Shown here: piece after piece, positions 27,364 to 44,615 of the stretch
Layout: each line of letters opens with the position of its first letter
Position numbering within the stretch: position 1 is the first letter of the stretch
Assembly (NCBI GenBank): GCA_029547225.1
Contig: JAKPPS010000056.1
Coordinates: forward strand, 25,356-89,355
From: a bacterium
Lineage (GTDB): Bacteria > Patescibacteriota > Dojkabacteria > SC72 > WJKH01
Reading direction: 5' to 3'
DNA: 64,000 nt
Translations under genes and position numbers: made by a program
The notes under the pieces: model-generated
Database searches by the model: none
What the model was told of the DNA's origin: nothing
Seen by the model: the letters and a program-made list of their open reading frames with translations, nothing else

Positions 27364-27618
27364 ATGGGTGCACTACCAAAAAGAAAAATTTCTAAAGCTA
27401 GAAAAGGCAGAAGAAGATCTCACAATGCTCTAACTTCACCAGCAATGTCAGTTTGTCCAAAGTGTGGCAAACCAAAGCGACCACATTTTAAATGTGAATA
27501 CTGTGGACATTACGGCAGTTTCAAAAGAGAATCAACTGATACAAAAGCAAATACTAGTGAGAAGAAAGTAAGTACCGCTCAAGCTACAAAAAAAGCTAAA
27601 GCTGTAGAAAAAAAGTAA
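27364..27618 (+). CDS. rpmF: 50S ribosomal protein L32 with a C-terminal Lys/Thr-rich extension
   Basis: MGALPKRKISKARKGRRRSHNAL and the zinc ribbon CPKCG...CEYCG. Confidence 0.85.
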   Translation: MGALPKRKISKARKGRRRSHNALTSPAMSVCPKCGKPKRPHFKCEYCGHYGSFKRESTDTKANTSEKKVSTAQATKKAKAVEKK

Positions 27619-27630
27619 AAATTTACTCAA

Positions 27631-28155
27631 ATGAAAACAAACCGCGATCCGAGACATCATTCAAGAATATTGGCTTTACAGCAGTTATATTCCTATCATT
27701 TTCATATTAAGAGTGCTGAAGCTAAAATCGATTATGAAGTCGACGAACTCGCAAAACTTGATCTAATTAATGATTTTCAGGACACTCTATACACTCAAAT
27801 AGTCGATGGTGTAAAAGAAAATTTAGAAAGTATTGATAGTTTTATTACAAAACGTGCTCCACAGTGGCCAATCGATCAAATTAAGAAGATCGATCTCGAA
27901 ATAATGCGAATAGCAATATATGAAGGTTTTATTTCTCAAATAACTCCACCAAAAGTTGCTATAGATGAAGCAATAGAACTTGCAAAGAAATTTGGAGGTG
28001 AAACAAGCAGTAAATTTGTTAATGGAGTTCTTGGATCACTTTTTGAAACCAATAATCAGAATGATTCTAGCAAAAATAAAGTAGTTAAAACTGATAAGAG
28101 TCCTGCAGTAAATAAAAAAATTAAATCAACTGTTAAGAAATCTTTATTACTATAG
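27631..28155 (+). CDS. nusB: Transcription antitermination factor NusB, with a basic C-terminal tail
   Basis: [13 protein letters not shown] at the N-terminus, and the [25 protein letters not shown] block. Confidence 0.8.
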
Positions 28156-28243
28156 TATTAGCAATAAGCTTTGTTGGAAAAAATACTTACAAGAAAATAC
28201 GATTATCATAAATATACGAATAAAATAAATCTTACCAAAAATC

Positions 28244-28963
28244 ATGAAAACAAATCCAGATGTAAAGGAAATAACTACAAAACTTGGTATAAAAATAAAA
28301 AAAATTGAGCTTTACGAAATTGCATTTACTCATAGATCCTATTTAAATGAAGCAAAAAAAGAAATACGTGCCCACAATGAACGCTTAGAGTTTTTAGGGG
28401 ATGCTGTTCTTGAGCTAATAATCTCAGAATATTTATATACCAAACATCCTGACCATCCAGAAGGAGATCTCACAAGTTTCAGATCAGCGATTGTAAAAGC
28501 ACCATCATTAGCAAAATTTGCTAAAGACTTTGGTTTCGGCGAGTATCTACGAATGTCAAAGGGAGAAGAAATCACTGGTGGAAGAACAAAAGACTACCTT
28601 TTAGCAAATACCTTTGAATCATTTTTAGGAGCGTTATACATCGATTTAGGCTATAAAGAGTGCCAAAAATTCATTTACAAGCACTTAGTTCCCGAACTAG
28701 AGAATATTATTGCCAACCGTCTTGATGTTGATCAAAAATCCAAATTTCAAGAAATGGCACAAAGCCTTTTTAAGTTAACTCCGGAATACAAACTTCTTAA
28801 AGAAGAAGGACCTGATCATGAGAAAATCTTTACTATGGCAGTATTTCTTGGCGAAAAACAATATGGTATTGGGAAAGGTCCAAGTAAACAGAAAGCAGAG
28901 GAAGAAGCCGCTTTGAACTCTCTAAAGATGCTTAGAGAAGATAAAAGTGTGATTACCTCTTGA
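28244..28963 (+). CDS. rnc: Ribonuclease III
   Basis: Signature NERLEFLGDAVLEL, and a dsRBD at the C-terminus (GPDHEKIFTMAVFLGEKQYGIGKGPSKQKAEEEAA). Confidence 0.9.
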   Translation: MKTNPDVKEITTKLGIKIKKIELYEIAFTHRSYLNEAKKEIRAHNERLEFLGDAVLELIISEYLYTKHPDHPEGDLTSFRSAIVKAPSLAKFAKDFGFGEYLRMSKGEEITGGRTKDYLLANTFESFLGALYIDLGYKECQKFIYKHLVPELENIIANRLDVDQKSKFQEMAQSLFKLTPEYKLLKEEGPDHEKIFTMAVFLGEKQYGIGKGPSKQKAEEEAALNSLKMLREDKSVITS

Positions 28964-28997
28964 ATTAATTAAATTGTTCTGATAAAATCAGTAAGCT

Positions 28998-29480
28998 ATG
29001 ATAAAGTTCAAATTAAAAAGAGTAGGTAAAAAAGGGCAAGCATTTTATCGAGTGGTTGTCATCGAATCTACTAAAAAAAGATCAAGTAATTACATAGAAG
29101 ATCTTGGCTGGTACAATCCGCATCTTGAGGCCGGTAAGTCATTTAATATTGATATCGAAAAGGCAAGAGAGTGGATCAAAAACGGTGCACAACCGACAGA
29201 AACAATAGCACAGTTTTTCGTAAAACTTGGTTTGATCGATAAATTACATCGTGGTTCTAGATTAGCTAAAGCTCCTGTTAAAGAAGCTCCAGCTACCGAA
29301 AAACCTGCAGAAAAAGCAACTGAAACAGAAGCACCAGATCAAGTTGATAAATCAAATGAATCAACAAATACTGAAGCTGAAGCTACAGAAGCAGCTGCTG
29401 AAACTCCAAAGGCTGAAGAGCAGACAGAGGATCAAGCAAATACTCAACCTACTGACCAAACATCAGAGGAGCCTAAATAA
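28998..29480 (+). CDS. rpsP: 30S ribosomal protein S16 with an acidic Ala/Glu/Thr-rich C-terminal extension
   Basis: MIKFKLKRVGKKGQAFYRVVV ... LGWYNP ... WIKNGAQPT. Confidence 0.9.
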   Translation: MIKFKLKRVGKKGQAFYRVVVIESTKKRSSNYIEDLGWYNPHLEAGKSFNIDIEKAREWIKNGAQPTETIAQFFVKLGLIDKLHRGSRLAKAPVKEAPATEKPAEKATETEAPDQVDKSNESTNTEAEATEAAAETPKAEEQTEDQANTQPTDQTSEEPK

Positions 29481-29497
29481 TTTATTTATTTCTACAT

Positions 29498-29857
29498 ATG
29501 AAAGAACTAGTTGAATATATAGTCAAGTCAATAGTCAATAATCCTGATGAAGTTGAAGTTTCTCAGAGAGAGAGTGTTGATTTTCCAGGTTTACATATTG
29601 TAACAATCAAGGTTTCTGATAAAGATCTTGGAGCTTTAATTGGTAAAAAAGGTAGAACAATTCACTCAATTAGAGATATTGTAACAATTGCAGCTATCAG
29701 AGCAAATAAGCGAGTTAGAGTAGTTGTACATGAAGAGGGTCGTACAGATGATGAGGGTGGTCATAATCACAATCATCAAGAGCATAATGAAAATACTCAG
29801 CCACAAACAACTGAAGTTATGTCAGATGAGAGTGTTGAGGAGACATTAGATTTGTAA
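29498..29857 (+). CDS. KH-domain RNA-binding protein (YlqC/UPF0109-like) with a His-rich tail
   Basis: It sits in the conserved position after rpsP. It carries the KH GxxG block LIGKKGRTIHSIRDI and the tail GGHNHNHQEHNEN. Confidence 0.75.
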   Translation: MKELVEYIVKSIVNNPDEVEVSQRESVDFPGLHIVTIKVSDKDLGALIGKKGRTIHSIRDIVTIAAIRANKRVRVVVHEEGRTDDEGGHNHNHQEHNENTQPQTTEVMSDESVEETLDL

Positions 29858-30052: not shown

Positions 30053-30730
30053 TTAATCTAGCAGTTTACTTCTATTTCTAAGCATTTCTACAAGATTATT
30101 AAAATTGGTGTACGGGACAAATGTTTGATAAGGGTCGACATTTGAGACACTCTCACTTAAATAATAACCGTTGATTGTAATATCAAAAGACCACCTCTTA
30201 CCCGATATATTTGAAAGATCAATTGAATTTACAGAGACAATGTATGGGGAAGATTTCTGTAGATCCTCAAGGAAAGATAAAACATCCGTATAATTACCCT
30301 CATAGCTTAAAGGACCACTGACTGTTGACATATCTAACGAGCTATCTTCAGAAGTTATATCAGAGTTTGAAGCCCGAATTTCATTAAGCTTAAGCCCTTT
30401 ATCTTTTGCAAGTTCGTCAACAAAATATACAAAATCAGCAACTTCAAGTCGGGTAGGGATAACTTGATCGATTATCTGATAGTCTTCATAAAGCTGGGTA
30501 CCATCCAATTCATCAATTTTTACTTGTAAAGTTTTCATTTGTTCCTGCTTACTTATGACATTTTTGGTATCATCATTGAGTTCGACTGTTTCCGTAATCA
30601 TAGGAATATATACAAAAATCGTTAATACAATAAATATGATAAAAGCAAGAAATGGTATTACAAAATCAGAGAAAATTAATTTCTTCTGCACTTTCTCACC
30701 ACTTTTTATTATTTCCCTTTGCTTTTGCAT
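30053..30730 (-). CDS. pilO: PilO-like type IV pilus alignment-complex protein
   Basis: It has a short cytoplasmic N-terminus, a single TM, a coiled-coil segment and an alpha/beta C-domain. It lies directly downstream of the pilM and pilN-like genes. Confidence 0.55.
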   Translation of the reverse strand: MQKQREIIKSGEKVQKKLIFSDFVIPFLAFIIFIVLTIFVYIPMITETVELNDDTKNVISKQEQMKTLQVKIDELDGTQLYEDYQIIDQVIPTRLEVADFVYFVDELAKDKGLKLNEIRASNSDITSEDSSLDMSTVSGPLSYEGNYTDVLSFLEDLQKSSPYIVSVNSIDLSNISGKRWSFDITINGYYLSESVSNVDPYQTFVPYTNFNNLVEMLRNRSKLLD

Positions 30731-30855: not shown

Positions 30856-32496
30856 TTAATTAGACGTTTCTCCGCTTGTTTTATTTTTAAAATAATCATA
30901 ATTAAGTTGACCTTCAAACTCGAAAGTAGTTTTATTAGCATATGATCCAACCGAATTAAGATTTACAATATTAACACGCGAATCCATACTGAGCAGATGC
31001 CACAATTTTGCAACATCCGTTAGTGAACTTGCCTCACCGCGAACAATAAAATGCAAATCAGGGTCCAACTCAATATTACTAATCTTACCCAATTTTGAGC
31101 TTACCTGATCCCAATACTCAAATACTTCACGATAAGAAACAGTATTTTGCTGGATAGAGTCAAAAAGTTTTATTCGTCGTAGTATGTAAGAGTTCTTTGT
31201 AAGTGTATCCTGATCTTGTAATACTTCTTTTTCAATCCTTGTTAATATTTTTTTCTGACCTTGGTTTTCTAACTTTGCTATAAAATTTGATCCGATGATC
31301 CCAATCGAGAGTAATACCAAAACCAAAATAAATACTGCGCCTGCAATGTTAAAACTGGCTTTTCGTTCATTTCGTGCAATTTCATCCGATGTAGCAGGTG
31401 GCAAAAGATTTATTCCTTCATTAATGTTTAATATTAATGGATTATCTTTTTTGTCAACCGATACTTGGCTTTTCTTCTTAGAAAATAAACCAAGCCCATT
31501 TTTCTTTTTTAAAGATTTATTCTTATTATTCTCGTTTACTTTTGTCTCATCGACTTTTATTTCATCTTGAACTTCGTCTTTCTTTAATTCTAGATTTACT
31601 TCGTCTTCAGGTTGATCTGCAATGTTAACACTGTTTTCTGTATTTGAATTCGAGATTTCTGACTCTTCAGTTAAAGCACTTACGACAACAGGATCTTTAA
31701 CAATTGCCTCAATCTCAGGCTTGATATCAATACTATCTTTTTTCTCGGTTAGCTCAACATTTTGTACTGGGGCTTCGGTTTCTGGAATTTTCTCAGGTAT
31801 GACATTCATAACTTCATCGGCTACAACACCTATCGTTTCAGTATTATCTGTTAACGCAATTTCTGATTTCTCCTCAGTTTTGACAGGATTTTCATTATTT
31901 TCTATTGCAAGTTTTTGGTCATCAGTCACTTTGATTTCTGGGTTATCCACGACAACATCTGATTTTGTTTCTTTCTTTTTAAAAAGCTTACTAAATATTG
32001 ATTGTCGTTTTGGTTTCACTTCCTTCATTTTTGTGTTTGCTTCGGGAGTAGCTTCAATGTTACTGCTTTCTTGAGTATCATTTTTTTCTAAGTCAGAAGC
32101 AATCTGGGTGACCTCAGTATTTGTTTCTGTCTGGCTTTTATCTGTAGTATCATCAGCAACTTCGTCAAAAGTTTCTCCACCTAATCCCTTTTTTTGTTCT
32201 TTATCACTAGTGTCCTCTATACCCATCTCCGATTGAGGTACATCTGCAACGGGTAAAGTTGCCTCACTGCCAGTATCGTCTGTATTTGGGGTACTAGGAG
32301 AGCTCACATTACCCACTGAAACGGATTGAGAGCCTTCCGAAATATTCACTGGTGCTTTTTCATCAGCTTTCGAAGTATCCGGACTTATTGGAGTCTCCGT
32401 TTGGCCATCATTTAGCACCGTTTTTAGCGCCTGATCAAGCTTAGCCTTATCTTTATCATCTATCTTTTTTTTACTAAAAATACTTAGGATTCCCAT
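30856..32496 (-). CDS. pilN: PilN-like protein with an acidic low-complexity N-terminal extension of about 355 aa
   Basis: An INLLP motif (EGINLLPP) lies immediately before the single TM (IAGAVFILVLVLLSIGIIG), followed by a PilN-type periplasmic domain. The ORF stays open from 24 nt downstream of the pilM stop. Confidence 0.6.
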   Translation of the reverse strand: MGILSIFSKKKIDDKDKAKLDQALKTVLNDGQTETPISPDTSKADEKAPVNISEGSQSVSVGNVSSPSTPNTDDTGSEATLPVADVPQSEMGIEDTSDKEQKKGLGGETFDEVADDTTDKSQTETNTEVTQIASDLEKNDTQESSNIEATPEANTKMKEVKPKRQSIFSKLFKKKETKSDVVVDNPEIKVTDDQKLAIENNENPVKTEEKSEIALTDNTETIGVVADEVMNVIPEKIPETEAPVQNVELTEKKDSIDIKPEIEAIVKDPVVVSALTEESEISNSNTENSVNIADQPEDEVNLELKKDEVQDEIKVDETKVNENNKNKSLKKKNGLGLFSKKKSQVSVDKKDNPLILNINEGINLLPPATSDEIARNERKASFNIAGAVFILVLVLLSIGIIGSNFIAKLENQGQKKILTRIEKEVLQDQDTLTKNSYILRRIKLFDSIQQNTVSYREVFEYWDQVSSKLGKISNIELDPDLHFIVRGEASSLTDVAKLWHLLSMDSRVNIVNLNSVGSYANKTTFEFEGQLNYDYFKNKTSGETSN

Positions 32497-32520
32497 TAAA
32501 ATAGTTTTTATCTTATCATT

Positions 32521-33552
32521 TTATTCAGTTTTCAGAGCCAAACCGACAGCTACCGAGAACGAAGGTTTACTCTTAGCTAGAGCACTTTCATATTTGGCAT
32601 CCACTTTGATATTTGTCCAAGGATCTCCTACTTTAGAATTAATATTTAATTGATCTGTCATGTATTTTTCGAGTCCTGGCAACATTGCACCATCACCGTT
32701 AAGCAGACATTCCTGTGGGACGGGTAGGAGAGTACGAGATTTGTAGAATTCCATACCTCTTTGGATCTCAACTAAAATCGAATCCATAACAGGTTTTAGC
32801 GCTTGAGCAACTTTACCTTCCAAAACATCTTCAGCAAGACCATAATTTCTCTTATACTCTTCAGCTTGATTATATTCAAAGCCAAACTTATTAACTATCG
32901 CTTGAGTTAATGCGTCTGAACCGATAGAAATACTCTGAGCAAAAACAAGAAATCCGTTATTCATAATGCTCATATCTGTACTCTGAGCTCCAAAATCAAG
33001 CATAAGTATTTCTTTTATACCAGTCGAACGATACATGGCTCGACCCATTGCAATAGATTCGGTTTCAATAGCTACAGGTTCAAGACCAGCCTTATCAACA
33101 ACACTTGTATAAATATCGATTATTTTTCGTGGTGCTGCGACTATTAAAACTTTATATACAGATCGTTTATCATCATACCCAATTGGTAGATAACTCATCT
33201 GAACCTCTTCAATCGGTAAAGGAATGAGCCTTTTTGCCTCATAAAACACAGCATTTTTAATCTCATCTTCTTTGATTCCACTATATTCCGTAAATCGTGT
33301 AAATACACTAAATTCAGGTAATGCCATAACTACACGTTTCTCTTTGATTTTTGCGGAATCAAAAAGCGCCTTAAGAGAATCTGTAAGTTTTTGTTGATGT
33401 GACGCATCTTCACTATTGATGACTCCCTGAGGAGTAACTTGGCTACCAAAATTTACTAAAGTTGGCTTATTTGAAGAAATATCCTCTAGCTGAACTGCTT
33501 TTACAGAATGACTTCCGAAATCTAAGCCTACATGATCGGGCAATTGTGACAT
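32521..33552 (-). CDS. pilM: Type IV pilus assembly protein PilM (actin-like ATPase fold)
   Basis: GLDFGSHSVKAVQL at the N-terminus, MLDFGAQSTDMSI, and LNGDGAMLPGLEKYM, typical of PilM. Confidence 0.85.
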   Translation of the reverse strand: MSQLPDHVGLDFGSHSVKAVQLEDISSNKPTLVNFGSQVTPQGVINSEDASHQQKLTDSLKALFDSAKIKEKRVVMALPEFSVFTRFTEYSGIKEDEIKNAVFYEAKRLIPLPIEEVQMSYLPIGYDDKRSVYKVLIVAAPRKIIDIYTSVVDKAGLEPVAIETESIAMGRAMYRSTGIKEILMLDFGAQSTDMSIMNNGFLVFAQSISIGSDALTQAIVNKFGFEYNQAEEYKRNYGLAEDVLEGKVAQALKPVMDSILVEIQRGMEFYKSRTLLPVPQECLLNGDGAMLPGLEKYMTDQLNINSKVGDPWTNIKVDAKYESALAKSKPSFSVAVGLALKTE

Positions 33553-33830: not shown

Positions 33831-36800
33831 TTAATAAGGTTTATACCCAAGTTCTTTTACATATGCATCAGAATCAACACCAAAGAATTTACTAGAAATA
33901 TAAAGATATCTTGGATCATAAATAACAACAAATGATGGATAGCTATTATTATCAAGCAGCTGTAAGGATCTTTGCCACAACAAGCCATTAGAATCTCCGC
34001 CCAAAGAATAAACCGCACCTTGGATTTTTATTCCGTCTACAGTTACCTGACCAATATCTGTACGTGGGAAGATTATATGTCCTCCAGCAATAAAGACTCC
34101 GTTTAAACTGTCAAAACTAGGTACACCACCTGAACTTTTATATGTTCCTTCTTCGATAGAAATATTTCCTCCAGCTAAGAATATGCAACCATTGATCTTT
34201 GGGGTATCTGTTTTGGTAATGTCAGGGTTAATTGTGATATTACCATTTGTTTTGATCAGCGCTTGACGATTACAATTTATTGCATTCACATCTAAATTTC
34301 CACTCGCGTTTATTACACATGCATTCGATTCGCTTAAACAGATATTTGAGACATCCCCACTAATCGATCCCACACTTAAGTTATATGAGTCAATAGTCCC
34401 ACTTGCGATTTCTTTATTTACTTGAGAGAGTAGTTGTTGATAATTAATAGACGTATTCGAATACGATACAAGTGTATACGGATCATATTTATTACCTCGA
34501 ACAACATTTTGAACAATAGTTGAGCCGTTTATTAAGCCTAATTCAGTAGTTATTTGTGTATTTGAACTGTTTGAACCATATGGATCAGCAAAATAAGTTA
34601 TAGCAGGATCTGGTACTTTAATAGGGCTTTCAACATCTCCAGCAGAGTAGAGTAACCCACCTTTTGTAGCGAACCAACTTTCTCCAATTGCAAGATTATT
34701 ACTATTATCAGTAAAAGAACCCATGTTACAGGCATTGTCAGTAGCTTTGATTTTGACTCCAAGATTTCCTTCGTTAATAACTCCTATGTTTAACTGCTGA
34801 GTACCAGAATTAACAGCTCCCTTTGCCCATATTGGAACAGGGTTAAAATCTTCACTTCCAGTCGAAGCATTAATATACGGAACAGTCACTGAAACATGAG
34901 GTTCAGCTGAAACTTCGGTAACAGTATGCTCATTTGGTTCATATGAGCTTCCAAACAAACCTACCAAACCAATAGATGACTTAACTCCAGAATTTGTATC
35001 AGTTAGGCTCCACTGGTACGATACAGTATTTTTATCTACAATCGTTGGGCCTGTTATAGTCGATGTTGGAGCAGTAAAATCAATTCGATAATCACCCTTA
35101 TCGTTCCATGTTGTTTGTCCAGGACCTGATGCAGTATCCCTTGCAAAACCAAGTAAATTTGTTACACCCTCCGGCATATTTGCGCCAAAACCAACAGTAA
35201 AAACATAAGTACATGTGTTACCTGAACAATCTGTACTAGCTAATTTCCAGCGGTTTTGCGAGCTATCTTGGCTTTCACTCGGATTCCATATTTCTGAGCT
35301 ATTATATTGATCATTATTTGAAGATGCTGACGAGAGTGCTGACATGATCATACCGGTACTTCCTGCACTCATACCAGTATTAGAAGGTAACTCCCAGTCA
35401 TAATTCCACGTATCATTACTAAAATCGTTAAGATATGTTAACCCATATAAAGCCATACTATTATTTCCGACAGCATTAGCTGAAGGAAGAGCTGTCGTAG
35501 TTGAACCCGTTGCAGTAAGGTTACGATTTATTGTAAACATTTGCCCATTAACTTTTATTGAATCTATATAAAGATTTCGATCCCCAGAAGGCACTGTAGA
35601 TACATAATAATCATTAGGAAAACGTATAGTTATTTGATTGGGCCGTAAAGCTGTATTATGAGTATATTGATATACACCTCCACCAGAAGTGATACCAGTA
35701 GAATTAGCAGCCCCAGTATTAACAGATTTTATAGTTTTCACGAGGTTACCATCTATCAGTATCTCCATATTAGCAAGCTGAGAAGCAGTACCCGAATTAA
35801 GGGTTGCTGCATAAATTTTGATTTCCGTTCCCTTGTGAGCTAGAGCATGTACCGATGTTTTAAGATCACTCCCCAAGGATGTAGTGTCATCGATCCACAG
35901 CCCTGCCCACAAAATATCACTAGGCCCATCATTATCCGTAACTGTAACAGTAAAATCTCTCGGATTATTATCATTACTTGCACCGCAATCTGTTCCATTA
36001 TCATAATTGGGTAACGAGCCAGAAAGACCACTATTAGGTGAGACTGTAACAGTTGGCTTACTGTTGATTTTAAAATATCCAATCAACTGATTTGAGCACA
36101 TGCCATCTGTACAGATAAACGAATCAGTACATTGGCGTAGTGGGGCATACTGTGTAGTCACTGTATATGATCGTCCTTCAGTTTTATTTATACTTGACCA
36201 GTTTGGAGAATAATACCTTAACCGAGTCCCCTCAGATGCTTCACTATCCAAACCCGCAACAGCAGTTAAACTTGTGCCTACTCCTGTGACGGCATAAGAA
36301 GCTAATAAACCACGAGAGTTTGTAGGAAATTGAGAGCTATTTGCGACATCAACCATGAAATATAGATTAGTTGCTAATTCTTCTGCATTTATTAGTGTCG
36401 GTTTTGAGGGATCGGTCGACAATTTTATACAAGCTTCTTGATTTGGACTACATATCGAAACATATTCTGGTGTTGGCGCTTTTGTGACTGTAGGATTTAC
36501 ATAACAAGCAGCTCCTGATGTTGTACAGGGACCACAATCGTTCTGTCCACTGCAAGATGACGAAACTGGGCTGCATCCTGCCCAACCACTCTGATATCCC
36601 AAGGGTTGAGTGAAGCTATATCCCGCACTACATGTTGGAGTACATGCTTCACACCCATTAGAATATGTTCCAGAACAACATGGTGTTGTATTGTCACATG
36701 GAGGACATAATACATCTACTTTGTCACCTGGAGCCCAACAGTAGTCACTTCCATTATCCTTACTCGTGCCACATCTATTTGGAACAGGAGATGAAAGAGT

Positions 36801-37436
36801 ACAATCTAATTTCTCACAACCTCCTGTTCCCTCATTTCTTCCAAGAAGACAATAATTACTTTCACCACAATCACCGACACAGGCACAGCTATATTCTGTA
36901 CGTGTCTTTACCCAACTACATCCTTTGTTAGAAGCTCTTTGACATTGATCCTTTTCTTTAATGTTTTTACAAACTGTTCCTGCTTTACAAAATGGAGCTT
37001 TCCAAGTACAGCCATCTGTTTTTTTACATTCTGGTTCCGTTGTTGCTCCAATACATGAATCGCCACAATAACCTTTTTCAATTACATTCCATTTACAAGC
37101 TTCATAATTTTCACAATCATTCTTATTTGTAAAATTTTTACACTTTGGACCAAAAATATTAATATCTTCTGACCTATACCAACAATTACCATCTTCACAC
37201 CCTGCATTAACATCCATAACAAACAAATCAGATATGATATTTCTAGAAGAATTGCTAGCTATATCAGTAGATAAGAACTTTATATCCGAAGAAGTAAAAT
37301 CAATAGAATTTGCGGGTTTATTAAAATAGCTATTTAGAAATAAGGAATAGAAGACTGACAGTAGTACAACAATTGCAGTAAAAAGGGTAAAAAACAGTTT
37401 ATTTCCAATTGTAATTTTTAATTTTCGTTTATTCAT
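33831..37436 (-). CDS. Giant exported orphan protein (1201 aa) with a Cys-rich N-terminal module; candidate pilus-associated adhesin
   Basis: It has an N-terminal signal anchor (LFFTLFTAIVVLLSVFYSLFL) and about 35 Cys in residues 75-345. A possible carbohydrate-binding-like segment contains DRNLYIDSIKVNG, and the C-terminus is Gly/Asn-rich and beta-helix-like. The gene sits inside the T4P operon. Confidence 0.65.
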   Translation of the reverse strand: MNKRKLKITIGNKLFFTLFTAIVVLLSVFYSLFLNSYFNKPANSIDFTSSDIKFLSTDIASNSSRNIISDLFVMDVNAGCEDGNCWYRSEDINIFGPKCKNFTNKNDCENYEACKWNVIEKGYCGDSCIGATTEPECKKTDGCTWKAPFCKAGTVCKNIKEKDQCQRASNKGCSWVKTRTEYSCACVGDCGESNYCLLGRNEGTGGCEKLDCTLSSPVPNRCGTSKDNGSDYCWAPGDKVDVLCPPCDNTTPCCSGTYSNGCEACTPTCSAGYSFTQPLGYQSGWAGCSPVSSSCSGQNDCGPCTTSGAACYVNPTVTKAPTPEYVSICSPNQEACIKLSTDPSKPTLINAEELATNLYFMVDVANSSQFPTNSRGLLASYAVTGVGTSLTAVAGLDSEASEGTRLRYYSPNWSSINKTEGRSYTVTTQYAPLRQCTDSFICTDGMCSNQLIGYFKINSKPTVTVSPNSGLSGSLPNYDNGTDCGASNDNNPRDFTVTVTDNDGPSDILWAGLWIDDTTSLGSDLKTSVHALAHKGTEIKIYAATLNSGTASQLANMEILIDGNLVKTIKSVNTGAANSTGITSGGGVYQYTHNTALRPNQITIRFPNDYYVSTVPSGDRNLYIDSIKVNGQMFTINRNLTATGSTTTALPSANAVGNNSMALYGLTYLNDFSNDTWNYDWELPSNTGMSAGSTGMIMSALSSASSNNDQYNSSEIWNPSESQDSSQNRWKLASTDCSGNTCTYVFTVGFGANMPEGVTNLLGFARDTASGPGQTTWNDKGDYRIDFTAPTSTITGPTIVDKNTVSYQWSLTDTNSGVKSSIGLVGLFGSSYEPNEHTVTEVSAEPHVSVTVPYINASTGSEDFNPVPIWAKGAVNSGTQQLNIGVINEGNLGVKIKATDNACNMGSFTDNSNNLAIGESWFATKGGLLYSAGDVESPIKVPDPAITYFADPYGSNSSNTQITTELGLINGSTIVQNVVRGNKYDPYTLVSYSNTSINYQQLLSQVNKEIASGTIDSYNLSVGSISGDVSNICLSESNACVINASGNLDVNAINCNRQALIKTNGNITINPDITKTDTPKINGCIFLAGGNISIEEGTYKSSGGVPSFDSLNGVFIAGGHIIFPRTDIGQVTVDGIKIQGAVYSLGGDSNGLLWQRSLQLLDNNSYPSFVVIYDPRYLYISSKFFGVDSDAYVKELGYKPY

Positions 37437-37477: not shown

Positions 37478-39097
37478 TCAATCAATAATATAAAATAATG
37501 AACTTTGAGTAAGTTTTATTAGATATTGTGACTCATCCTTTTCGTAGTACAAATACTCATCTGGTTCAATAAGCCATAAAGTGTTTGATTCGATACTTCC
37601 ATCATCTGCATAAGAATTGTTATTTCGGTTTAATTCTGTAGTAAAAGCATACCATAATATTTCCGAGATTTCATTTTCTTCAAAAAGAATATTGCAATTC
37701 TTTACTGATTCTTCTTTTACATTAACTTCTTGCGGACTACTTGCATTGATTTCTCTATCGGACAAGTCAACTACTGCATTAAATATGCATTGATTCAAAC
37801 CCAAAGGAAAACCAAATTTATTCATCACTGATAAGGCTCTGCACAAATTGTTATCTTGTTTCGTGAAGCTCTCAGCTTCTTGCTGGTCATCTTGAGAAAT
37901 ATTTTTTGAGTCAGAGTACTCGAGGAGCTTGATAAATAAATCTTCTGAGGCTTTTCGTCCCCAATAAGATTCTCCATCTGACCACACATTACCCAAGTTA
38001 TTTACCGTATCCATCGGATCATTTAATAGATCCTGATTATCACACGTAGGATTACTTTTTTGCTTACAGATTGAAGACATTGAGGTAAAATAGTTTGTAA
38101 GAGTACTGCATTTCTCGCCACACTTCTCTGATTCGGACAAGCTCAAATCTAATAAAGTACATTCATATCTTCGATCATTACTTTTGTTAACAGTATAATT
38201 CTCGGCGCTAAAAACTGATGGGAGACCTTCCAATATTTCCAATGCTTTGCTGACATAATCACTTTTTTCTTCTAATTCTGAATTTGTATTAACATATTTA
38301 ATTAGAAATAATGAGTTTAGAAAGATAGTATACGGATCTTCTGACTCGGCATAATCTTTCAAAACAATATTATTGTTTTCACCATTTAATAAGAATAAAT
38401 CGTTCTTTGGGAGAGTCAAAGTCAGGCTATCATATTTCAAAATATTTTTATCGATTTGATACAAAGAATGAAGAAATCCGACATATCGATCAGCTGGCAT
38501 TTCCCCTTTAGCAATCTCAGATTCTTTAGTTTTATCGATATTATTTAAACTAATTTGGTAGTTTTCTGCTTCAAGGAAATAATCCTTGTTAAAAAACACT
38601 TTTTTTATGTAATCAATAAATTTCGGTTTATTTAAAGTGTTTTCAGATTGTAACAACCGAGGTCCATACACAATAGAATCTGTATTATCAAGAGAAATAT
38701 TTATTTTCTCGATTGGTAATAGGACTACATCTTGAACAATAACTTCTGAATCCAACTTTTCTAATGATTTTGAATAGTATTCAACTTTAATATTTTCTCC
38801 AGAATATGTAGCTGATTTAACATAAATATTCTTCCCATAAGTAAGTCTACATAGCTCTTTTTCTGAACCATCATAAATGGCAGTCAACAAAGGTAGCCTG
38901 AATTCATCGTGTGAAAAAGAAGTGTTTATCAAAGTAGCTTTATCACAATAGTTCCAATTTTTATAGCTAGTAAAAGAAATAATAAGAAAAATCGCAATCA
39001 ATAGAAAGGGTATAAGTAAAAAAAATAGCCAAGAATTCTTCCAATTACTTTGAGATTTATTCGTGTTATCGTTCAGAGACATAAGAGCAGTATTCAA
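37478..39097 (-). CDS. Exported or membrane-anchored orphan protein (539 aa) in the T4P operon
   Basis: N-terminal TM (WLFFLLIPFLLIAIFLIISF). No recognised domain. Its stop lies 41 nt upstream of the start of the 1201-aa gene. Confidence 0.6.
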   Translation of the reverse strand: MNTALMSLNDNTNKSQSNWKNSWLFFLLIPFLLIAIFLIISFTSYKNWNYCDKATLINTSFSHDEFRLPLLTAIYDGSEKELCRLTYGKNIYVKSATYSGENIKVEYYSKSLEKLDSEVIVQDVVLLPIEKINISLDNTDSIVYGPRLLQSENTLNKPKFIDYIKKVFFNKDYFLEAENYQISLNNIDKTKESEIAKGEMPADRYVGFLHSLYQIDKNILKYDSLTLTLPKNDLFLLNGENNNIVLKDYAESEDPYTIFLNSLFLIKYVNTNSELEEKSDYVSKALEILEGLPSVFSAENYTVNKSNDRRYECTLLDLSLSESEKCGEKCSTLTNYFTSMSSICKQKSNPTCDNQDLLNDPMDTVNNLGNVWSDGESYWGRKASEDLFIKLLEYSDSKNISQDDQQEAESFTKQDNNLCRALSVMNKFGFPLGLNQCIFNAVVDLSDREINASSPQEVNVKEESVKNCNILFEENEISEILWYAFTTELNRNNNSYADDGSIESNTLWLIEPDEYLYYEKDESQYLIKLTQSSLFYIID

Positions 39098-39158
39098 ATA
39101 TAAAAAACAGTATTACTGGACAAAACAAATTACTATCTTAAAAATCTTGTTATCAGAT

Positions 39159-39548
39159 TTACTTGCTTCCTAGATATTTCTCAATATTACTAATCAATTC
39201 CTCGGAAGAGATTTCTGTTTTGACAAAATACTCTGAAGCACCTAAAGTCAAGCATTCTTTAACAACTTTATCACTTACCATATTGGTTAAAATCACTACA
39301 GGTACACCATCATATTGATCCGGATGAGATTTGATTTGTCTCAATACTTCAATACCATCAATACCTGGCATCATAAGATCTAGCAATACTACTGCGACTG
39401 AGGATTTATTCTCTTCGATAAGCTTTAAACCTTTATATCCATCCGTAGCACCATATACCGTTGCTCCAGTTGACTCAATAACTTCAGTATAAGAGTCAAG
39501 CAAATCTTTCTCATCTTCAATAATAATCACAACTTTATTTGGATCCAT
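39159..39548 (-). CDS. Single-domain response regulator receiver (CheY/PilH-like)
   Basis: The receiver residues are in order: acidic pocket (IIIEDEKD), phospho-acceptor context VVLLDLMMPGIDG, Thr (VVILTNM) and Lys (YFVKT). There is no output domain. Confidence 0.85.
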   Translation of the reverse strand: MDPNKVVIIIEDEKDLLDSYTEVIESTGATVYGATDGYKGLKLIEENKSSVAVVLLDLMMPGIDGIEVLRQIKSHPDQYDGVPVVILTNMVSDKVVKECLTLGASEYFVKTEISSEELISNIEKYLGSK

Positions 39549-39678
39549 ATATTACAATATTTAATTTATCCTTTTCTACATAGTAAATATAATTATCTTA
39601 CAAGTCAATACTCTTTCCAAAAACATTAAACTCAAAAATCCTAGCAAGACATTAAATAAAACATGTATCAACACGGGT

Positions 39679-40638
39679 CTATTCAGTATAAGTCAAATCT
39701 CCATATCCATTATAAAGTACAAAATCAAAAAGTGATGGAGCAGAAGGCACCAGATCTTTGTAATAATAATTGGCTCTATAAGTACCACCACAATTCGTTG
39801 AAGCAACAACGATAACTTTAGGATCGAAGAAAATACAAGTAGACTCTATCTTAACATTCATATCACTCCCCAGAGCTTTTATCCGAACAGAGATGGTGTT
39901 TCCTGTACCCAAACTGTTTGTAACAACTGGCAGATTATATCCAGTGCTTTGATTGTACGAAATCCAGGATCCGCTCCAGTTTGTATCTCCATTAATTTTT
40001 AGGCCAACAATATTATCTGGTCCATTCTCAACGACAGAAATAACCTCCCCATTTACATCTCTACCACCTTCAAACCTTGAAATTATTGCCCCAGAAGATG
40101 TTTGTAGAGTAGGGGTCAATTTAATATTAGCTGTACATCCAGGCGTACTTACTGTACTCTTCACATTTAAATTGAGAGTCTCATCTTTCGAAATATTAAA
40201 TCCATCCTGATCAGAAGTCTGTTTAAAACAAAGTTCAGCAGTGGTATTTGTTTCGCCGGGACAATTTAAAGATTCTTTTACGATAACAGGATCAATACCA
40301 TCAAACTGAGTTAGATTGCCACCTGCAAAACAACATTCTTTACCTGAACCGAATTCGGGACATTTATCAACAATATCGTCAATTTCTATTGACTTTGAGA
40401 TCTCTACTAAAGAATCCGATACTTCAATTGCACCAGAAGAAAGGGTTTCCTCAGCAACTCGAGCATTTTGTTTCAAAGTCCTCGATACTAGTGCCAAAGC
40501 AATAAGTGCACAAATAAGTACAATAATTAGTACAAGAGCTAGTGCTTGAGATTCATACCTAGTATCATTTATTGATTTTCCTGGAAGCTTTCTGGCACAA
40601 GAATTACCTTTTAGTGTATAAAGAATGTCTTTAATCAT
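39679..40638 (-). CDS. PilX-like minor pilin candidate
   Basis: The N-terminal hydrophobic helix ESQALALVLIIVLICALIALALV resembles a PilX_N segment. The gene sits last in the minor-pilin string. No canonical G/F-x-x-x-E site is present. Confidence 0.4.
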   Translation of the reverse strand: MIKDILYTLKGNSCARKLPGKSINDTRYESQALALVLIIVLICALIALALVSRTLKQNARVAEETLSSGAIEVSDSLVEISKSIEIDDIVDKCPEFGSGKECCFAGGNLTQFDGIDPVIVKESLNCPGETNTTAELCFKQTSDQDGFNISKDETLNLNVKSTVSTPGCTANIKLTPTLQTSSGAIISRFEGGRDVNGEVISVVENGPDNIVGLKINGDTNWSGSWISYNQSTGYNLPVVTNSLGTGNTISVRIKALGSDMNVKIESTCIFFDPKVIVVASTNCGGTYRANYYYKDLVPSAPSLFDFVLYNGYGDLTYTE

Positions 40639-40810
40639 ATTTTAATATAACATATATATTATTTTATTTCGACAAATTGACACAAAAGTTTATATTCTAG
40701 AAATGCCACAAACAATATATTTCTCTTGTTCCTAAGTTCTGTACTTTTTCTACAATAGCTTATGGTATTTATAGAATTCAGTTTTTTATATCAATTTTCC
40801 TAGAAAACTT

Positions 40811-41533
40811 TTAGTTACTACTCATCTTATTTGTAGTAATATACAGGTCTTGGTTAATCGCTCTTGGTAACTCAGAATTTCCATATTTCTTGGTGGGTTG
40901 ACCAGAAAGTTTAATCCGATAAAAGACATTTTGAGAGCCTCCGGAAAAGTACGTAGCGTCAAATTGTGTAAAGTTTACCTGCGATGTGTTCAACTTCATT
41001 ATATTCTTTTTATATTCTGAAGTTGTAGAATCAAAGCAGCTAGCATGATTGCTCAGATTTTTGTAAGATGTTTTAAACAAATATCCTTTACCCTCAGAAT
41101 CGACAAAATAGCCTATACATATCCATCTATCAGAATTAAATGGTAATAGGTGAATTTCATTTCCAATATTGCTTTCACCTTCATCCAGAGGAGCAGAGAA
41201 CTCACCAGAAGATGATGGATTCCTTGTAATAACATCATTAGTAGAATCATAGTAGTAATATTCTCTGGAGTTAAACAAGAAAACACTACTTGGATTACTC
41301 TGCTTAATTGTTCGCTTTATCAGCTCCATCGTAAAATCGGTTTGATTCAAAGATTCCATGCGTGCACTTGATACAAAAGAGACCTGAAGTAACGAATTAA
41401 GACTGAGGCCAATTATTAACATTACAACAGAGACAACTGCCACAGAAATAATCATCTCGACAAGAGAATATGCTTCATATTCTGAATTCCTGCCAATTAG
41501 TTGTACTTTATTTGAATTTCGTAATTTTCTCAT
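40811..41533 (-). CDS. PilW-like minor pilin with a prepilin-type N-terminus
   Basis: EYEA/YSLVEMIISVAVVSVVMLIIGL has Glu at +5 if cleaved after Ala. Confidence 0.55.
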   Translation of the reverse strand: MRKLRNSNKVQLIGRNSEYEAYSLVEMIISVAVVSVVMLIIGLSLNSLLQVSFVSSARMESLNQTDFTMELIKRTIKQSNPSSVFLFNSREYYYYDSTNDVITRNPSSSGEFSAPLDEGESNIGNEIHLLPFNSDRWICIGYFVDSEGKGYLFKTSYKNLSNHASCFDSTTSEYKKNIMKLNTSQVNFTQFDATYFSGGSQNVFYRIKLSGQPTKKYGNSELPRAINQDLYITTNKMSSN

Positions 41534-41559
41534 TATCGATTTATTTTAATCAAACACAC

Positions 41560-42141
41560 TTAATTAAGTTTTAAAACAACATTTTTCTCCTGATCGGAAA
41601 TTAAACATGATTTTGTAAAAGCTACTTTGCGACAATCAATCCTCCCAGAATATATTACACCTGTTACAATACCAGAATCCCCATCATATGAATTGATACA
41701 AAAACTTGCAAAATCACCTTCTTCTAAATCATCTACAATTGCTTTCGTACGACACTTATTATCTCGATTTTTCAACGAAGCATAATCACAAATCGGAGAG
41801 CTAAATGAAGGGCTCGAAATATCTCCCTGAATTCGATAACACATTTTCCAATCATCCCCCTCATTAAATGGAAAGTACGATGGCTCATCAAGTTCTTTTG
41901 AGTTTTCTAAATCAGCAAGCCTTGTTACTTTTGCTGATACGCCTTCCATTTCCCTCACAAGCCTCTCAGTTACTTCAATACGATCCATATTCATATAAGT
42001 ATCTTGAGCTAGAGACAGAAAAACAACTCCAGCAACGGATGCAAGAAAAAGAGCTAAAAGTGCTTCAACGAGACCTTGAGCTTTATAGCTAGTGAGTTCA
42101 TTATTATCATTTTTTATTCTTTTTGTATTACTTTTATTCAT
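41560..42141 (-). CDS. PilV-like minor pilin candidate
   Basis: YKA/QGLVEALLALFLASVAGVVFLSL has Glu at +5 if cleaved after Ala. Confidence 0.45.
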   Translation of the reverse strand: MNKSNTKRIKNDNNELTSYKAQGLVEALLALFLASVAGVVFLSLAQDTYMNMDRIEVTERLVREMEGVSAKVTRLADLENSKELDEPSYFPFNEGDDWKMCYRIQGDISSPSFSSPICDYASLKNRDNKCRTKAIVDDLEEGDFASFCINSYDGDSGIVTGVIYSGRIDCRKVAFTKSCLISDQEKNVVLKLN

Positions 42142-42196
42142 TTTATACTTTTTAGTACTGATATTTAAGTAATATCCTAAGCGAAATAAAATATTT

Positions 42197-43111
42197 TTAC
42201 TCTAAACTTTTAACAGGATCAAGAATAATTGGATCAGATTTTATTGGGTCTGTAGTGCCTGAATCGTCCTTGGGAATCTCTTCATTGACAGGAGGAACAA
42301 TATTTCCATCATCGATTGGTTTTGCTACATCTGCATCACCTGGATAATTATCAACAACTGATACTTGCCCAGATACACGATTCACCACAATATCTTTTGT
42401 AAAATTTCCTGCTGACAAACTGATTACTGCAGGAACTTGTTTATCATCAATCTGTACAGCGCCTGAGATATAAGCATAGTTCAGCAAATTTCCTGAGGCA
42501 TCATACATAAAAGCTCTACCTGTAACCGATTCGAATAGAATATATTTTGGATTTTTTGAAGAGGTAGCCTCGGTTTTTGACTTTACAATACTATTTAACG
42601 AAGTCACTCCTCTTCCTGAAACTGGGACTAAAGTGTTTGCAGTTAGCGCATTACAACTTGTTTTAGTTATAGTACTACCTGACATATCAATTGGTAAATT
42701 ACCATTTCCTATTAATATTGGTTTCTTTTCGTCGAAATATGGAAGTTCTCCGCGCAATTTAGCTTGAGAAGGATCATAATCAGGATACTCAGAACACCAC
42801 TTGAAAATCGTATAATTCCCATTTTCGATTTGAGAAAGATCAACACCGATACCATACATCCAATATTCTCCAGCTTCCCTTCGTAAAGTCATGGAAGATC
42901 GCTGTGCCCAAGAGATATCCTGAGCCAATAATCTGACATCTTCATTTAGAGCAATAGAATTTCGAATACCTGTAAATGCCGAACCAGTCACTGCAAATAG
43001 GATAATAGTGATTGCTATTACAACCAACATTTCAACCATGGAAAATCCTTGAAAATATTCTCTTTCGATTCTTGTTTTATTTTTTTTTAGATTGTGGGGC
43101 AATTGAAGCAT
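42197..43111 (-). CDS. GspH/FimT-like pseudopilin with a canonical prepilin signal
   Basis: REYFQG/FSMVEMLVVIAITIILFAV is followed by a GspH-like region (LLAQDISWAQRSSMTLRR). Confidence 0.65.
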   Translation of the reverse strand: MLQLPHNLKKNKTRIEREYFQGFSMVEMLVVIAITIILFAVTGSAFTGIRNSIALNEDVRLLAQDISWAQRSSMTLRREAGEYWMYGIGVDLSQIENGNYTIFKWCSEYPDYDPSQAKLRGELPYFDEKKPILIGNGNLPIDMSGSTITKTSCNALTANTLVPVSGRGVTSLNSIVKSKTEATSSKNPKYILFESVTGRAFMYDASGNLLNYAYISGAVQIDDKQVPAVISLSAGNFTKDIVVNRVSGQVSVVDNYPGDADVAKPIDDGNIVPPVNEEIPKDDSGTTDPIKSDPIILDPVKSLE

Positions 43112-43263: not shown

Positions 43264-44073
43264 CTACATAAACAAAAATCCGATGTCCCAATAATCATAT
43301 CCACAATTAGTTAATATCAATGAGATAACATAACCTATTGAAATAAAGGGAATCAGTGGAATATAACTTTTCAAAGTGATTTTTTTGAAAAGCAACATAA
43401 TAATTATGTATATTAAACTAACTAGTAGAGTTACAAACAAGACAAGTAATATCATAAATTTGTTCAAGAAAATTCCCAAACCTAATAATATAAGTACATC
43501 ACCAAATCCAAACGATTTCTTGAAGATATTTAATAACATCATTATCACAACTACAATCATAGTTGCCGAAAGCGAAAAGAACTTTGCAGTAAAAAAATCC
43601 GTGCCATAATAGAATTGATTTGCGACAAATATCTCTATGGTTACAAGGAGCGATAATATTAAAAATAAGTGAACAACTTTTCTTGGTATCGACCGGCTAT
43701 TAATATCAAAGAAGGACATGAAAAACAAAAATGCAAGAATAACATAAAATTCCGCTTGTACATCACAATATGCGAATGCTCCAAAACTTGCACCCAGAAA
43801 TAATTCAGAGATAGGGTAGATGAATGGGATTTTTGCTTTACAATGAATACATTTTCCACCAATGAATAAATAGCCAAAGAAAGGTATAAGTGCATACCAC
43901 GGAATATTCTTTTTACATCTATCGCAGTTGGAGGATTCAAAAAGAAGGGCTCTTAATTCAGAACCCTTCTCAATCCTAAAAACCAATGTATGGAGGAAAC
44001 TTGCAATACACATACCAATTAGGCCTAAGAATATTGCAAGAATCGTATTATTCATATCATCAATTATTGCCAA
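43264..44073 (-). CDS. pilD: Prepilin peptidase (A24 family)
   Basis: Zn-finger-like CDRCKKNIPWYALIPFFGYLFIGGKCIHCKAKI, multiple TMs, and the FGFGDV Asp-box context. It overlaps the pilin gene by 10 nt. Confidence 0.85.
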   Translation of the reverse strand: MAIIDDMNNTILAIFLGLIGMCIASFLHTLVFRIEKGSELRALLFESSNCDRCKKNIPWYALIPFFGYLFIGGKCIHCKAKIPFIYPISELFLGASFGAFAYCDVQAEFYVILAFLFFMSFFDINSRSIPRKVVHLFLILSLLVTIEIFVANQFYYGTDFFTAKFFSLSATMIVVVIMMLLNIFKKSFGFGDVLILLGLGIFLNKFMILLVLFVTLLVSLIYIIIMLLFKKITLKSYIPLIPFISIGYVISLILTNCGYDYWDIGFLFM

Positions 44074-44615
44074 GCCTTATCTTCACCTGACCATGTTCCA
44101 GGAATACACCTATCTGCTGGTAGACAGCCAAGAATTTTACCATATGCTGATGTAAGATTTGCATCATATTTTATTAATCTATCAGTTGCAGGAGTGCCAG
44201 TTGGCAATGAATTAAATCCATTTCCTTCACAATATAAATCCTCTTTTGAACTTTTATCTGACCCACCAAGATAAACACAAGCTAGGAAAGAGTTTCTATC
44301 TTCGGAAACCATATAATAATATATTGCATCATTACCACCATCAAAACCACCTAAGTAGTCAACTAATGTAGTCTCAACTAGAGTTTCAAAACTACCTGTT
44401 GCTTCAGGATAAGATAGTGTCTGATTATAATAAGCTGTTAAAGCTGTAGAAATTGTACTTGCACCCTTTTTATGTGCTGTATCTGCAGCATTCTGGATGA
44501 TAGCTCTACCACCAAAAAAACCTACTGCACTAAGTAGTACGATTATCGCCATGACGACAAGCATCTCGACGAGAGTAAAACCTTTATATGTTTTTCTCAT
44601 ATTAAATAATAACAA
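44064..44615 (-). CDS. pilA: Type IV pilin (candidate major pilin)
   Basis: MRKTYKG/FTLVEMLVVMAIIVLLSAV is a canonical class III signal, and Cys residues in the C-terminal region could form a D-region disulfide. The likely true start is the ATG at 44600. Confidence 0.75.
   Translation of the reverse strand: MLLFNMRKTYKGFTLVEMLVVMAIIVLLSAVGFFGGRAIIQNAADTAHKKGASTISTALTAYYNQTLSYPEATGSFETLVETTLVDYLGGFDGGNDAIYYYMVSEDRNSFLACVYLGGSDKSSKEDLYCEGNGFNSLPTGTPATDRLIKYDANLTSAYGKILGCLPADRCIPGTWSGEDKAWQ

Follow-up and report, generated by a model that had tools for sequence, protein, structure and literature searches.

A Patescibacterial PilN with an internal PilM-binding motif behind a long, acidic and disordered tail

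A PilM-binding motif at the extreme N-terminus of PilN is typical of the type IV pilus systems described so far, although it is not a proven requirement. What, then, becomes of PilN when several hundred residues stand ahead of this motif, and what might those residues do? The question is raised by a 64,000-nucleotide stretch of a Dojkabacteria genome (contig JAKPPS010000056.1; referred to throughout as the window), which carries on its minus strand a pilN-like open reading frame (ORF) between pilM and a pilO-like gene. The original prediction, made from the sequence alone, held that the INLLP motif of this protein lies behind an acidic extension of about 355 residues and that the geometry of the PilM-PilN interface is thereby changed. 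Our analysis bears out the long stretch before the motif, which amounts to 361 rather than ~355 residues: in the 546-residue PilN, INLLP occupies residues 362-366 (31413..31399, minus strand). The place assigned to EGINLLPP (31398-31418) was likewise right, its ends being 1-2 nt off (31419..31396, minus strand). The genes concerned are as follows.

32521..33552, minus strand: pilM, 343 residues, the actin-like partner of PilN (Pfam PilM_2, E=1e-52)
32497..32520, minus strand: pilM-pilN spacer, 24 nt, A/T-rich and without a Shine-Dalgarno motif
30856..32496, minus strand: pilN-like ORF, 546 residues plus stop, between pilM and the pilO-like gene
30053..30730, minus strand: pilO-like gene, 225 residues (Pfam PilO, E=2e-5; score 25.2 bits, cutoff 22)

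The spacing of 24 nt from the pilM stop had been given exactly (TAA at 32523..32521, pilN ATG at 32496), and the description of the leading stretch as rich in Glu, Asp, Thr and Lys fits its composition: residues 1-361 contain 46 Lys, 44 Glu, 34 Asp, 32 Ser, 32 Val, 30 Thr and 28 Asn, with 35% charged residues and a net charge of -31. At the ~33% G+C of the window about 7% of random codons would be stops, and by our estimate 361 codons would remain open by chance with a probability of ~1e-12; the longest ORF in the other five frames over the pilN region spans 150 codons. Two antisense ORFs, rich in Ser, Phe, Leu and Val, overlap the tail (31295..31570, plus strand, 91 residues; 31622..32074, plus strand, 150 residues). 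We rejected both as genes and regard them as by-products of a low-complexity coding strand, as the ratio of nonsynonymous to synonymous substitution (dN/dS) favors the minus-strand frame. Tandem repeats in the DNA of the tail are confined to two weak, short arrays that form no repeat architecture.

The regions of the protein are given below, each with the dN/dS value obtained from a codon-level comparison of the window pilN with the related locus L003. Structural statements derive from an AlphaFold2 model built on a 69-sequence family alignment and are accompanied, where relevant, by the predicted local distance difference test score (pLDDT).

32413..32496, minus strand: island 1, residues 1-28, MGILSIFSKKKIDDKDKAKLDQALKTVL, a hydrophobic-polybasic motif with an amphipathic helix behind it, kept in every full-length relative; dN/dS 0.03
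32011..32412, minus strand: linker 1, residues 29-162, acidic, disordered and fast-evolving, pLDDT mostly <50 without secondary structure; dN/dS 0.44
31969..32010, minus strand: island 2, residues 163-176, KRQSIFSKLFKKKE, amphipathic and basic, with S.FSKLFKKK invariant in 8 of 8 sequences; dN/dS 0.07
31510..31968, minus strand: linker 2, residues 177-329, acidic and disordered, pLDDT mostly <50; dN/dS 0.30
31396..31509, minus strand: island 3 and the PilM-binding motif, residues 330-367, KKKNGLGLFSKKKSQVSVDKKDNPLILNINEGINLLPP, near-invariant in relatives, with INLLP at 31399..31413; dN/dS 0.11
31282..31350, minus strand: single transmembrane helix, residues 383-405, with the hydrophobic run NIAGAVFILVLVLLSIGIIGSNF; AlphaFold2 helix from residue 384
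30859..31281, minus strand: extracytoplasmic long helix (to about residue 450) and ferredoxin-like alpha/beta domain (residues 455-542), from AlphaFold2 and Foldseek; dN/dS 0.04 for this part together with the transmembrane helix

The C-terminal module of the protein is that of a canonical PilN. GINLLPP occupies residues 361-367 and the transmembrane helix starts at about residue 383, placing a cytoplasmic motif near the membrane as in PilN; INLLP ends 17 residues ahead of the single helix, in line with the earlier claim that it lies directly before the transmembrane segment. Block-mean pLDDT climbs from 84 (residues 381-390) to 96-97 (residues 391-410) at this helix and is 83-98 over residues 381-540, where the model contains a helix of residues 384-450 that includes the transmembrane segment, followed by a beta-beta-alpha-beta-beta domain. 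In Foldseek searches this domain matched the periplasmic domains of PulL (5hl8, target TM-score (TMt) 0.79), XcpY (6ghu, 0.76) and EpsL (2w7v, 0.70), as well as PilO (2rjz) and the Thermus PilN (4bhq); the matches have weak E-values (8e-3 to 8e-2) but good TM-scores over the target domain. Pfam scans of the window PilN, both whole and for its C-terminal part, found no significant family and did not reach PF05137 (PilN), and the family profile searched against PDB sequences returned no PilN, its sole match being a spurious one to BAG-1 (E=0.25). PF05137 is matched weakly by 22 of 65 family members (best E=6e-5). The pilM product matches PilM in 2YCH (E=1e-35) and in 5EOX/5EOU (E=2e-26). Because the genes stand in the order pilM-pilN-pilO, the predicted fold matches GspL, PilO and PilN, and some relatives weakly match PF05137, we identify the protein as PilN, which agrees with the PilN-like assignment made originally. 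It is a PilN in every respect tested (gene order, INLLP-transmembrane arrangement and fold) save the position of the motif, and the canonical module of INLLP, 17 residues, transmembrane helix, long helix and ferredoxin-like domain is strongly supported as intact.

Is the tail actually translated? The alternative is an annotation artefact, in which translation starts internally (at TTG365 or Met230) or the tail represents read-through from, or fusion with, pilM; its footing is that a GAAGGA sequence stands ahead of TTG365 and that pilM and pilN share a frame in the window. Initiation at TTG365, however, would cost the protein the I-N-L of its motif, neither this codon nor GAAGGA is kept in the related locus L001, and the genome makes no use of Shine-Dalgarno sequences (2 of 49 genes), so that this start was rejected. 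Met230 fares no better, as it is replaced by isoleucine in the relatives P0002, P0003 and P0005. Since no in-frame ATG, GTG or TTG occurs between Met230 and the second leucine of INLLP, any product holding the motif carries at least 132 residues ahead of it. The original prediction would have fallen had translation begun at an internal codon close to INLLP; the only such codon, TTG365, deletes the motif and is unconserved, and with no usable start near and upstream of INLLP the acidic stretch and the motif belong to the same product. A pilM-pilN read-through fusion was ruled out by the spacer: its 24 nt leave the two genes in one frame in the window and L003, whereas the 16 nt found in L001 (3166..3187) put them out of frame; the shared frame in the window is thus coincidental. 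Nor does the tail reflect an assembly error, because the identical protein (P0001) is found on 5 contigs from several sources and its relatives share the same build, some at 85-92% identity and 546-556 residues and a more diverged group at 650-666 residues. In P0002-8 a single open frame survives many insertions and deletions, dN/dS lies below 1 in every region of the protein, and the N-terminal sequence MGI[LF]SIF.KKK, common to all full-length relatives, begins exactly at the ATG. We attach next to no credence to an artefact, and conclude from these sequence comparisons that translation very probably begins at the upstream ATG at 32496.

How unusual is this arrangement? An exhaustive phmmer search with residues 325-546 yielded 79 clusters at 50% identity, 69 of which make up the family alignment; N363 and L364 are its most conserved columns. 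The original prediction had proposed a comparison of PilN lengths in relatives as a check, and this comparison was informative: ahead of the INLLP column the members have between 6 and 480 residues, in a continuous spread (median 60), while the part from INLLP to the C-terminus stays at 177-227 residues (median 182). The lead exceeds 10 residues in 66 of the 69 members and is 10 or fewer in 3. Leads are low in complexity, the longer ones are acidic, and some have a polybasic run right before the motif. Since leads span 6-480 residues, the window PilN represents the long end of a continuous family-wide distribution, and the internal motif is the norm of the Patescibacterial PilN family and no peculiarity of this gene. 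Both the canonical form (189 residues) and a 666-residue form occur within Dojkabacteria. Gene order is kept at L001, L003, L005, L006 and L008, where the pilO-like position is likewise filled, and the pilM-pilN-pilO synteny covers Dojkabacteria and one Nomurabacteria genome, with PilN there of 197, 288 and 320 residues; a profile search of genome contigs with a tighter family alignment returned a single locus, L005. Full-text literature searches on PilN N-terminal extensions, on INLLP and on PilN or disorder in Patescibacteria (the candidate phyla radiation, CPR) found no description of an extended PilN. The extended Patescibacterial PilN is a real feature and, as far as could be found, an unreported one; there is no sign of a different core mechanism or of a new machine.

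The original prediction had supposed that an internal motif alters the PilM-PilN interface, which it need not do. In T. thermophilus, PilN binds, through its first eight residues, a narrow channel that lies between two subdomains of PilM (PMC6325625). The PDB entry 5EOU is a P. aeruginosa chimera of the form PilM(1-354)-linker-PilN(1-12), in which PilN(1-12), MARINLLPWREE, occupies residues 361-372 and INLLP starts at residue 4 of PilN. Because this peptide is covalently extended at its N-terminus, a free PilN N-terminus is not needed in the solved construct. In the window PilN, INLLP lies at the canonical distance from the transmembrane helix, and 66 of 69 relatives have more than 10 leading residues. 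Comparison with these systems thus gives no evidence for an altered interface, and this part of the original prediction was not sustained.

The tail might still be removed after synthesis. An extended motif, hydrophobic-x-x-G-x-G-I-N-L-I-P, is common across the family, and the locus encodes a prepilin peptidase, which cuts after glycine at the cytoplasmic face; a protease acting near the conserved G-x-G would turn the tail into a pro-region and leave a mature, canonical N-terminus. The prepilin site is unmatched, however, as there is no Glu at +5 and the transmembrane helix is 20 residues away, and the conserved islands far from the cut site imply a role of the tail in its own right. We know of no precedent for such processing of a PilN tail, and consider it very improbable.

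What remains attached to the module is, on strong support, a cytoplasmic, intrinsically disordered, polyanionic tail (net charge -31) in which two fast-evolving acidic linkers separate three islands under strong purifying selection. In the AlphaFold2 model residues 31-358 fall almost wholly below a pLDDT of 50 without secondary structure, and the sole confident element of the tail is the helix of residues 14-28 in island 1 (block-mean pLDDT 83 for residues 11-20 and 71 for residues 21-30). Among 20-residue blocks of the tail, only the islands carry a positive charge (+3, +6 and +5), and 4 of the 5 phenylalanines of the tail fall within them. The motif [ILFVM]F[SGDE]K[KL][KF] is present three times, and just 15 of 20000 shuffles of the tail contained one or more copies. 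Linker identity between lineages has fallen to ~22-25% while island residues stay invariant. Linker 1 measures ~135 residues in the window PilN as compared to 233 in P0006-8, with a net charge of about -19 to -20 in both, and linker 2, which has a net charge of -23, is 153 residues long in the window PilN and 153-173 over the relatives.

These patterns bear on whether the tail has any function at all. It could be largely non-adaptive, a tolerated, slippage-driven inflation of a free N-terminus that forms part of a lineage-wide growth of tails. The continuous range of leads in front of a module of constant length fits this idea, as do the presence of 189- and 666-residue forms within Dojkabacteria, the shift of linker 1 from 135 to 233 residues between close lineages and insertions in the linkers that look repeat-like (ETETPKTETR, poly-N). 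Other proteins of the lineage are enlarged as well: S16, NusB and L32 have 160, 174 and 84 residues in the window (27364..29857, plus strand), are longer in L001 too, and measure 100-105, 146-148 and 65-75 residues in other Patescibacteria (L006, L008); S16 and a KH protein visibly finish with acidic tails of low complexity, and the overall pattern resembles a growth of disordered tails across the lineage. Against neutral growth stand island dN/dS values of 0.03-0.11, residues that are invariant between lineages whose linkers are ~22-25% identical, the retention of a net charge of about -20 in linker 1 after its sequence was lost, and linker dN/dS values (0.3-0.44) that are still below 1. As an explanation of the tail as a whole we find it improbable.

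We favor a reading in which the islands are weak membrane-targeting sequences, a view inferred by analogy. The full 546-residue bitopic PilN would be translated, INLLP, although internal, would still dock in the cleft of PilM, from which the tail would simply emerge. The three islands (GILSIFSKKK, SIFSKLFKKK and GLGLFSKKK) would each present a hydrophobic face followed by a polybasic run, in the manner of MinD and MinE, and would give the tail three points of attachment to the anionic inner leaflet. Two acidic loops would thereby come from each PilN, and together the loops would surround the pilus base with a charged brush on its cytoplasmic face, the meeting place of PilM, PilC and the PilB/PilT ATPases; the linkers would be selected for charge and disorder and not for sequence or length, and the tail would have arisen when the PilN N-terminus, which in Patescibacteria is free to grow, expanded in this particular lineage. 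The islands have hydrophobic moments (muH) of 0.24-0.61, mean hydrophobicities (H) of 0.14-0.40 and charges of +3 to +4; residues 2-11 of island 1 give 0.36, 0.40 and +3, and the moment of island 2 (0.61) is the highest among the positively charged windows of the tail. Moments of 0.36-0.61, hydrophobicities of 0.26-0.40 and the charges of +3 to +4 lie within the range that we computed for targeting peptides of MinD (0.41/0.27/+4), MinE (0.31/0.47/+2) and FtsA. Look-alikes of the islands occur in some distant family members (MGLFGNSKKK, MALFTKNKK, KKGLFMGLRGFMF and KKKKGFLSSLI), and since they are sporadic while PilM is at least 60% identical across Patescibacteria, a low-specificity lipid contact fits better than one conserved protein site.

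Several considerations weigh against membrane pinning. The proposal that the islands bind membranes is an argument from physicochemical resemblance only; the helical moments of islands 1 and 3 are modest (0.24-0.36), and AlphaFold2 assigns low confidence and no helix to island 2 and to the GLGLF part of island 3. Most extended family members are without such motifs, so that the motifs cannot explain extensions in general, and much of the tail length may be neutral, because the tails of S16, NusB and L32 are longer in this lineage too. Taken as a whole, from translation to membrane pinning, we regard this explanation as the best available and as somewhat probable.

The same islands could instead bind proteins. 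They would then be short linear motifs, either extra, weak PilM sites or docking sites for PilB, PilT or PilC, and not lipid anchors; a multivalent PilN would bridge neighboring PilM subunits, and the acidic linkers would serve as flexible fly-casting tethers. The islands are constrained to the same degree as the folded domain of the protein, as the dN/dS values indicate, and the confident amphipathic helix at residues 14-28 is a typical partner-binding element. The tail also contains a second INLLP-like pentapeptide, MNVIP, at residues 230-234 in linker 2 (31795..31809, minus strand), which starts at the only in-frame ATG between residue 157 and INLLP and may be either another site for PilM or a chance match. 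P0002-5 retain the form [IM]NVIP, P0006-8 lack it, and by our estimate the chance expectation of such a pentapeptide is roughly 2-9%. Contact between PilM and the ATPase has been reported, as has a modulation of PilM's partners by PilN binding (PMC6325625; McCallum 2016 cited there), and the related FtsA takes up basic cytoplasmic FtsN peptides in the same IA-IC cleft (PMC7613929). Against protein binding, PilM homologues (343-344 residues) are at least 60% identical across Patescibacteria, while the islands are confined to a sub-lineage and have loose look-alikes elsewhere. We consider protein binding a serious but rather unlikely alternative to the membrane-targeting reading.

A second component of the locus carries a comparable tail, as the original prediction had noted in drawing a parallel with PilT. 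The T2SSE domain of the 1028-residue PilT-like ATPase (46145..49231, minus strand) is restricted to residues 678-955, and residues 1-677 form an acidic low-complexity tail, rich in Ser, Thr, Val, Asn and Gln, with a net charge of -46 and one basic island.

48200..48268, minus strand: basic amphipathic island of the PilT-like ATPase, residues 322-344, KKEKKKKQSKFAQRLAKLRDQFF, the single one in its tail

We count this one analogous island in favor of the membrane-targeting reading. A more far-reaching notion is that the PilN tails (~12 per machine if the stoichiometry is as in other type IVa pili) and the 677-residue PilT-like tail together would form a membrane-pinned polyanionic layer or condensate-like scaffold, a layer of intrinsically disordered regions specific to the ultra-small Patescibacteria that would act through the islands and possibly MNVIP to gate the motors of extension and retraction or to recruit them; this is speculative and, in our judgment, doubtful.

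Comparison with known systems places the window PilN among familiar parts. Like the canonical type IVa pilus PilN of P. aeruginosa and T. thermophilus (2YCH, 5EOU, 4BHQ), it is encoded between pilM and pilO and has INLLP ~17 residues before a single transmembrane helix, followed by a long helix and a ferredoxin-like extracytoplasmic domain. Reviews put the cytoplasmic part of canonical PilN at 'about 30 amino acids' (PMC7613929) or speak of a 'short cytoplasmic portion' (PMC4471445), as compared to 361 residues before the motif here. GspL, which in type II secretion corresponds to PilM and PilN together (PMC4471445), also has a large cytoplasmic region N-terminal to its transmembrane helix, and it is proteins of this GspL/PulL/EpsL kind that the C-terminal domain matches best in structure (TMt 0.70-0.79); however, the cytoplasmic domain of GspL is folded and actin-like, whereas that of the window PilN is disordered and the actin fold resides in a separate PilM. 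The resemblance to targeting sequences of MinD, MinE, FtsA and SepF lies in a short hydrophobic or amphipathic stretch followed or flanked by Lys and Arg, and island 1 resembles the N-terminus of MinE, MALLDFFLSRKK...AKERL; it differs in that the Pfam scan of the window PilN is empty with no detectable homology, and in that three copies occur in one disordered chain of a transmembrane protein. The C-terminal linker of FtsZ is disordered and variable, and tethers a conserved FtsA-binding peptide to the folded domain. In this arrangement, as in the FtsN tail, a variable disordered region adjoins a short peptide that binds an FtsA/PilM-type fold (PMC7613929), but the disordered region of the window PilN is distal to the peptide, a free tail that cannot set the distance between PilM and the membrane. 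Finally, cyanobacterial PilT2 is extended at its N-terminus by a proline-rich segment (PMC4390875), which as a low-complexity extension on a pilus component parallels the PilT-like ATPase of the window, although protein and composition differ; no PilN counterpart of it was described in the literature searched.

The pilus gene cluster, identified by Pfam on the minus strand of the window, continues upstream of pilM.

49252..51111, minus strand: pilB (Pfam)
46145..49231, minus strand: pilT-like ATPase gene (Pfam)
44760..45977, minus strand: pilC (Pfam)
44064..44615, minus strand: pilin gene (Pfam)
43264..44073, minus strand: pilD, prepilin peptidase (Pfam)
37478..43111, minus strand: further ORFs, including a response regulator
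39159..39548, minus strand: stand-alone response-regulator receiver protein, 129 residues, inside the pilus locus
33831..37436, minus strand: CBM60 protein, 1201 residues, directly upstream of pilM

The response regulator is flanked by the ORFs at 39679..43111 and by a 539-residue ORF without a family match. A protein of 1100-1210 residues adjoins pilM upstream in Dojkabacteria and Nomurabacteria (window 33831..37436; L003 1036..4668; L005 384..3743; L008 609..3917), with a CBM60 match in the window, L003 and L005 copies, and the window copy has a transmembrane segment at its N-terminus and a Cys-rich region; this could be a surface protein or an adhesin that is associated with the pilus. Over all 49 gene starts of the window, a Shine-Dalgarno-like motif is found upstream of 2 and TAnAAT within 20 nt of the start codon in 11, which suggests that the mRNAs are leaderless or have a very short leader.

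Patescibacteria have few conserved surface machines. Type IV pili belong to these, and Saccharibacteria depend on them for attachment to the host and for motility (PMC12206443). Because these PilN proteins are annotated as 'hypothetical' and the window PilN has no Pfam match when scanned whole, CPR pilus inventories may under-count PilN. PilN has been described with a short tail whose extreme N-terminus sits in PilM, whereas the Patescibacterial family keeps the motif as an internal peptide, and its N-terminus is a hotspot of disordered expansion (6-480 residues) in which one lineage carries constrained hydrophobic-basic motifs. If the islands bind neither membrane nor motor proteins, this family would offer a clean case of neutral tail inflation in reduced genomes; if they bind either, they would reveal an unrecognized cytoplasmic layer at the base of the pilus.

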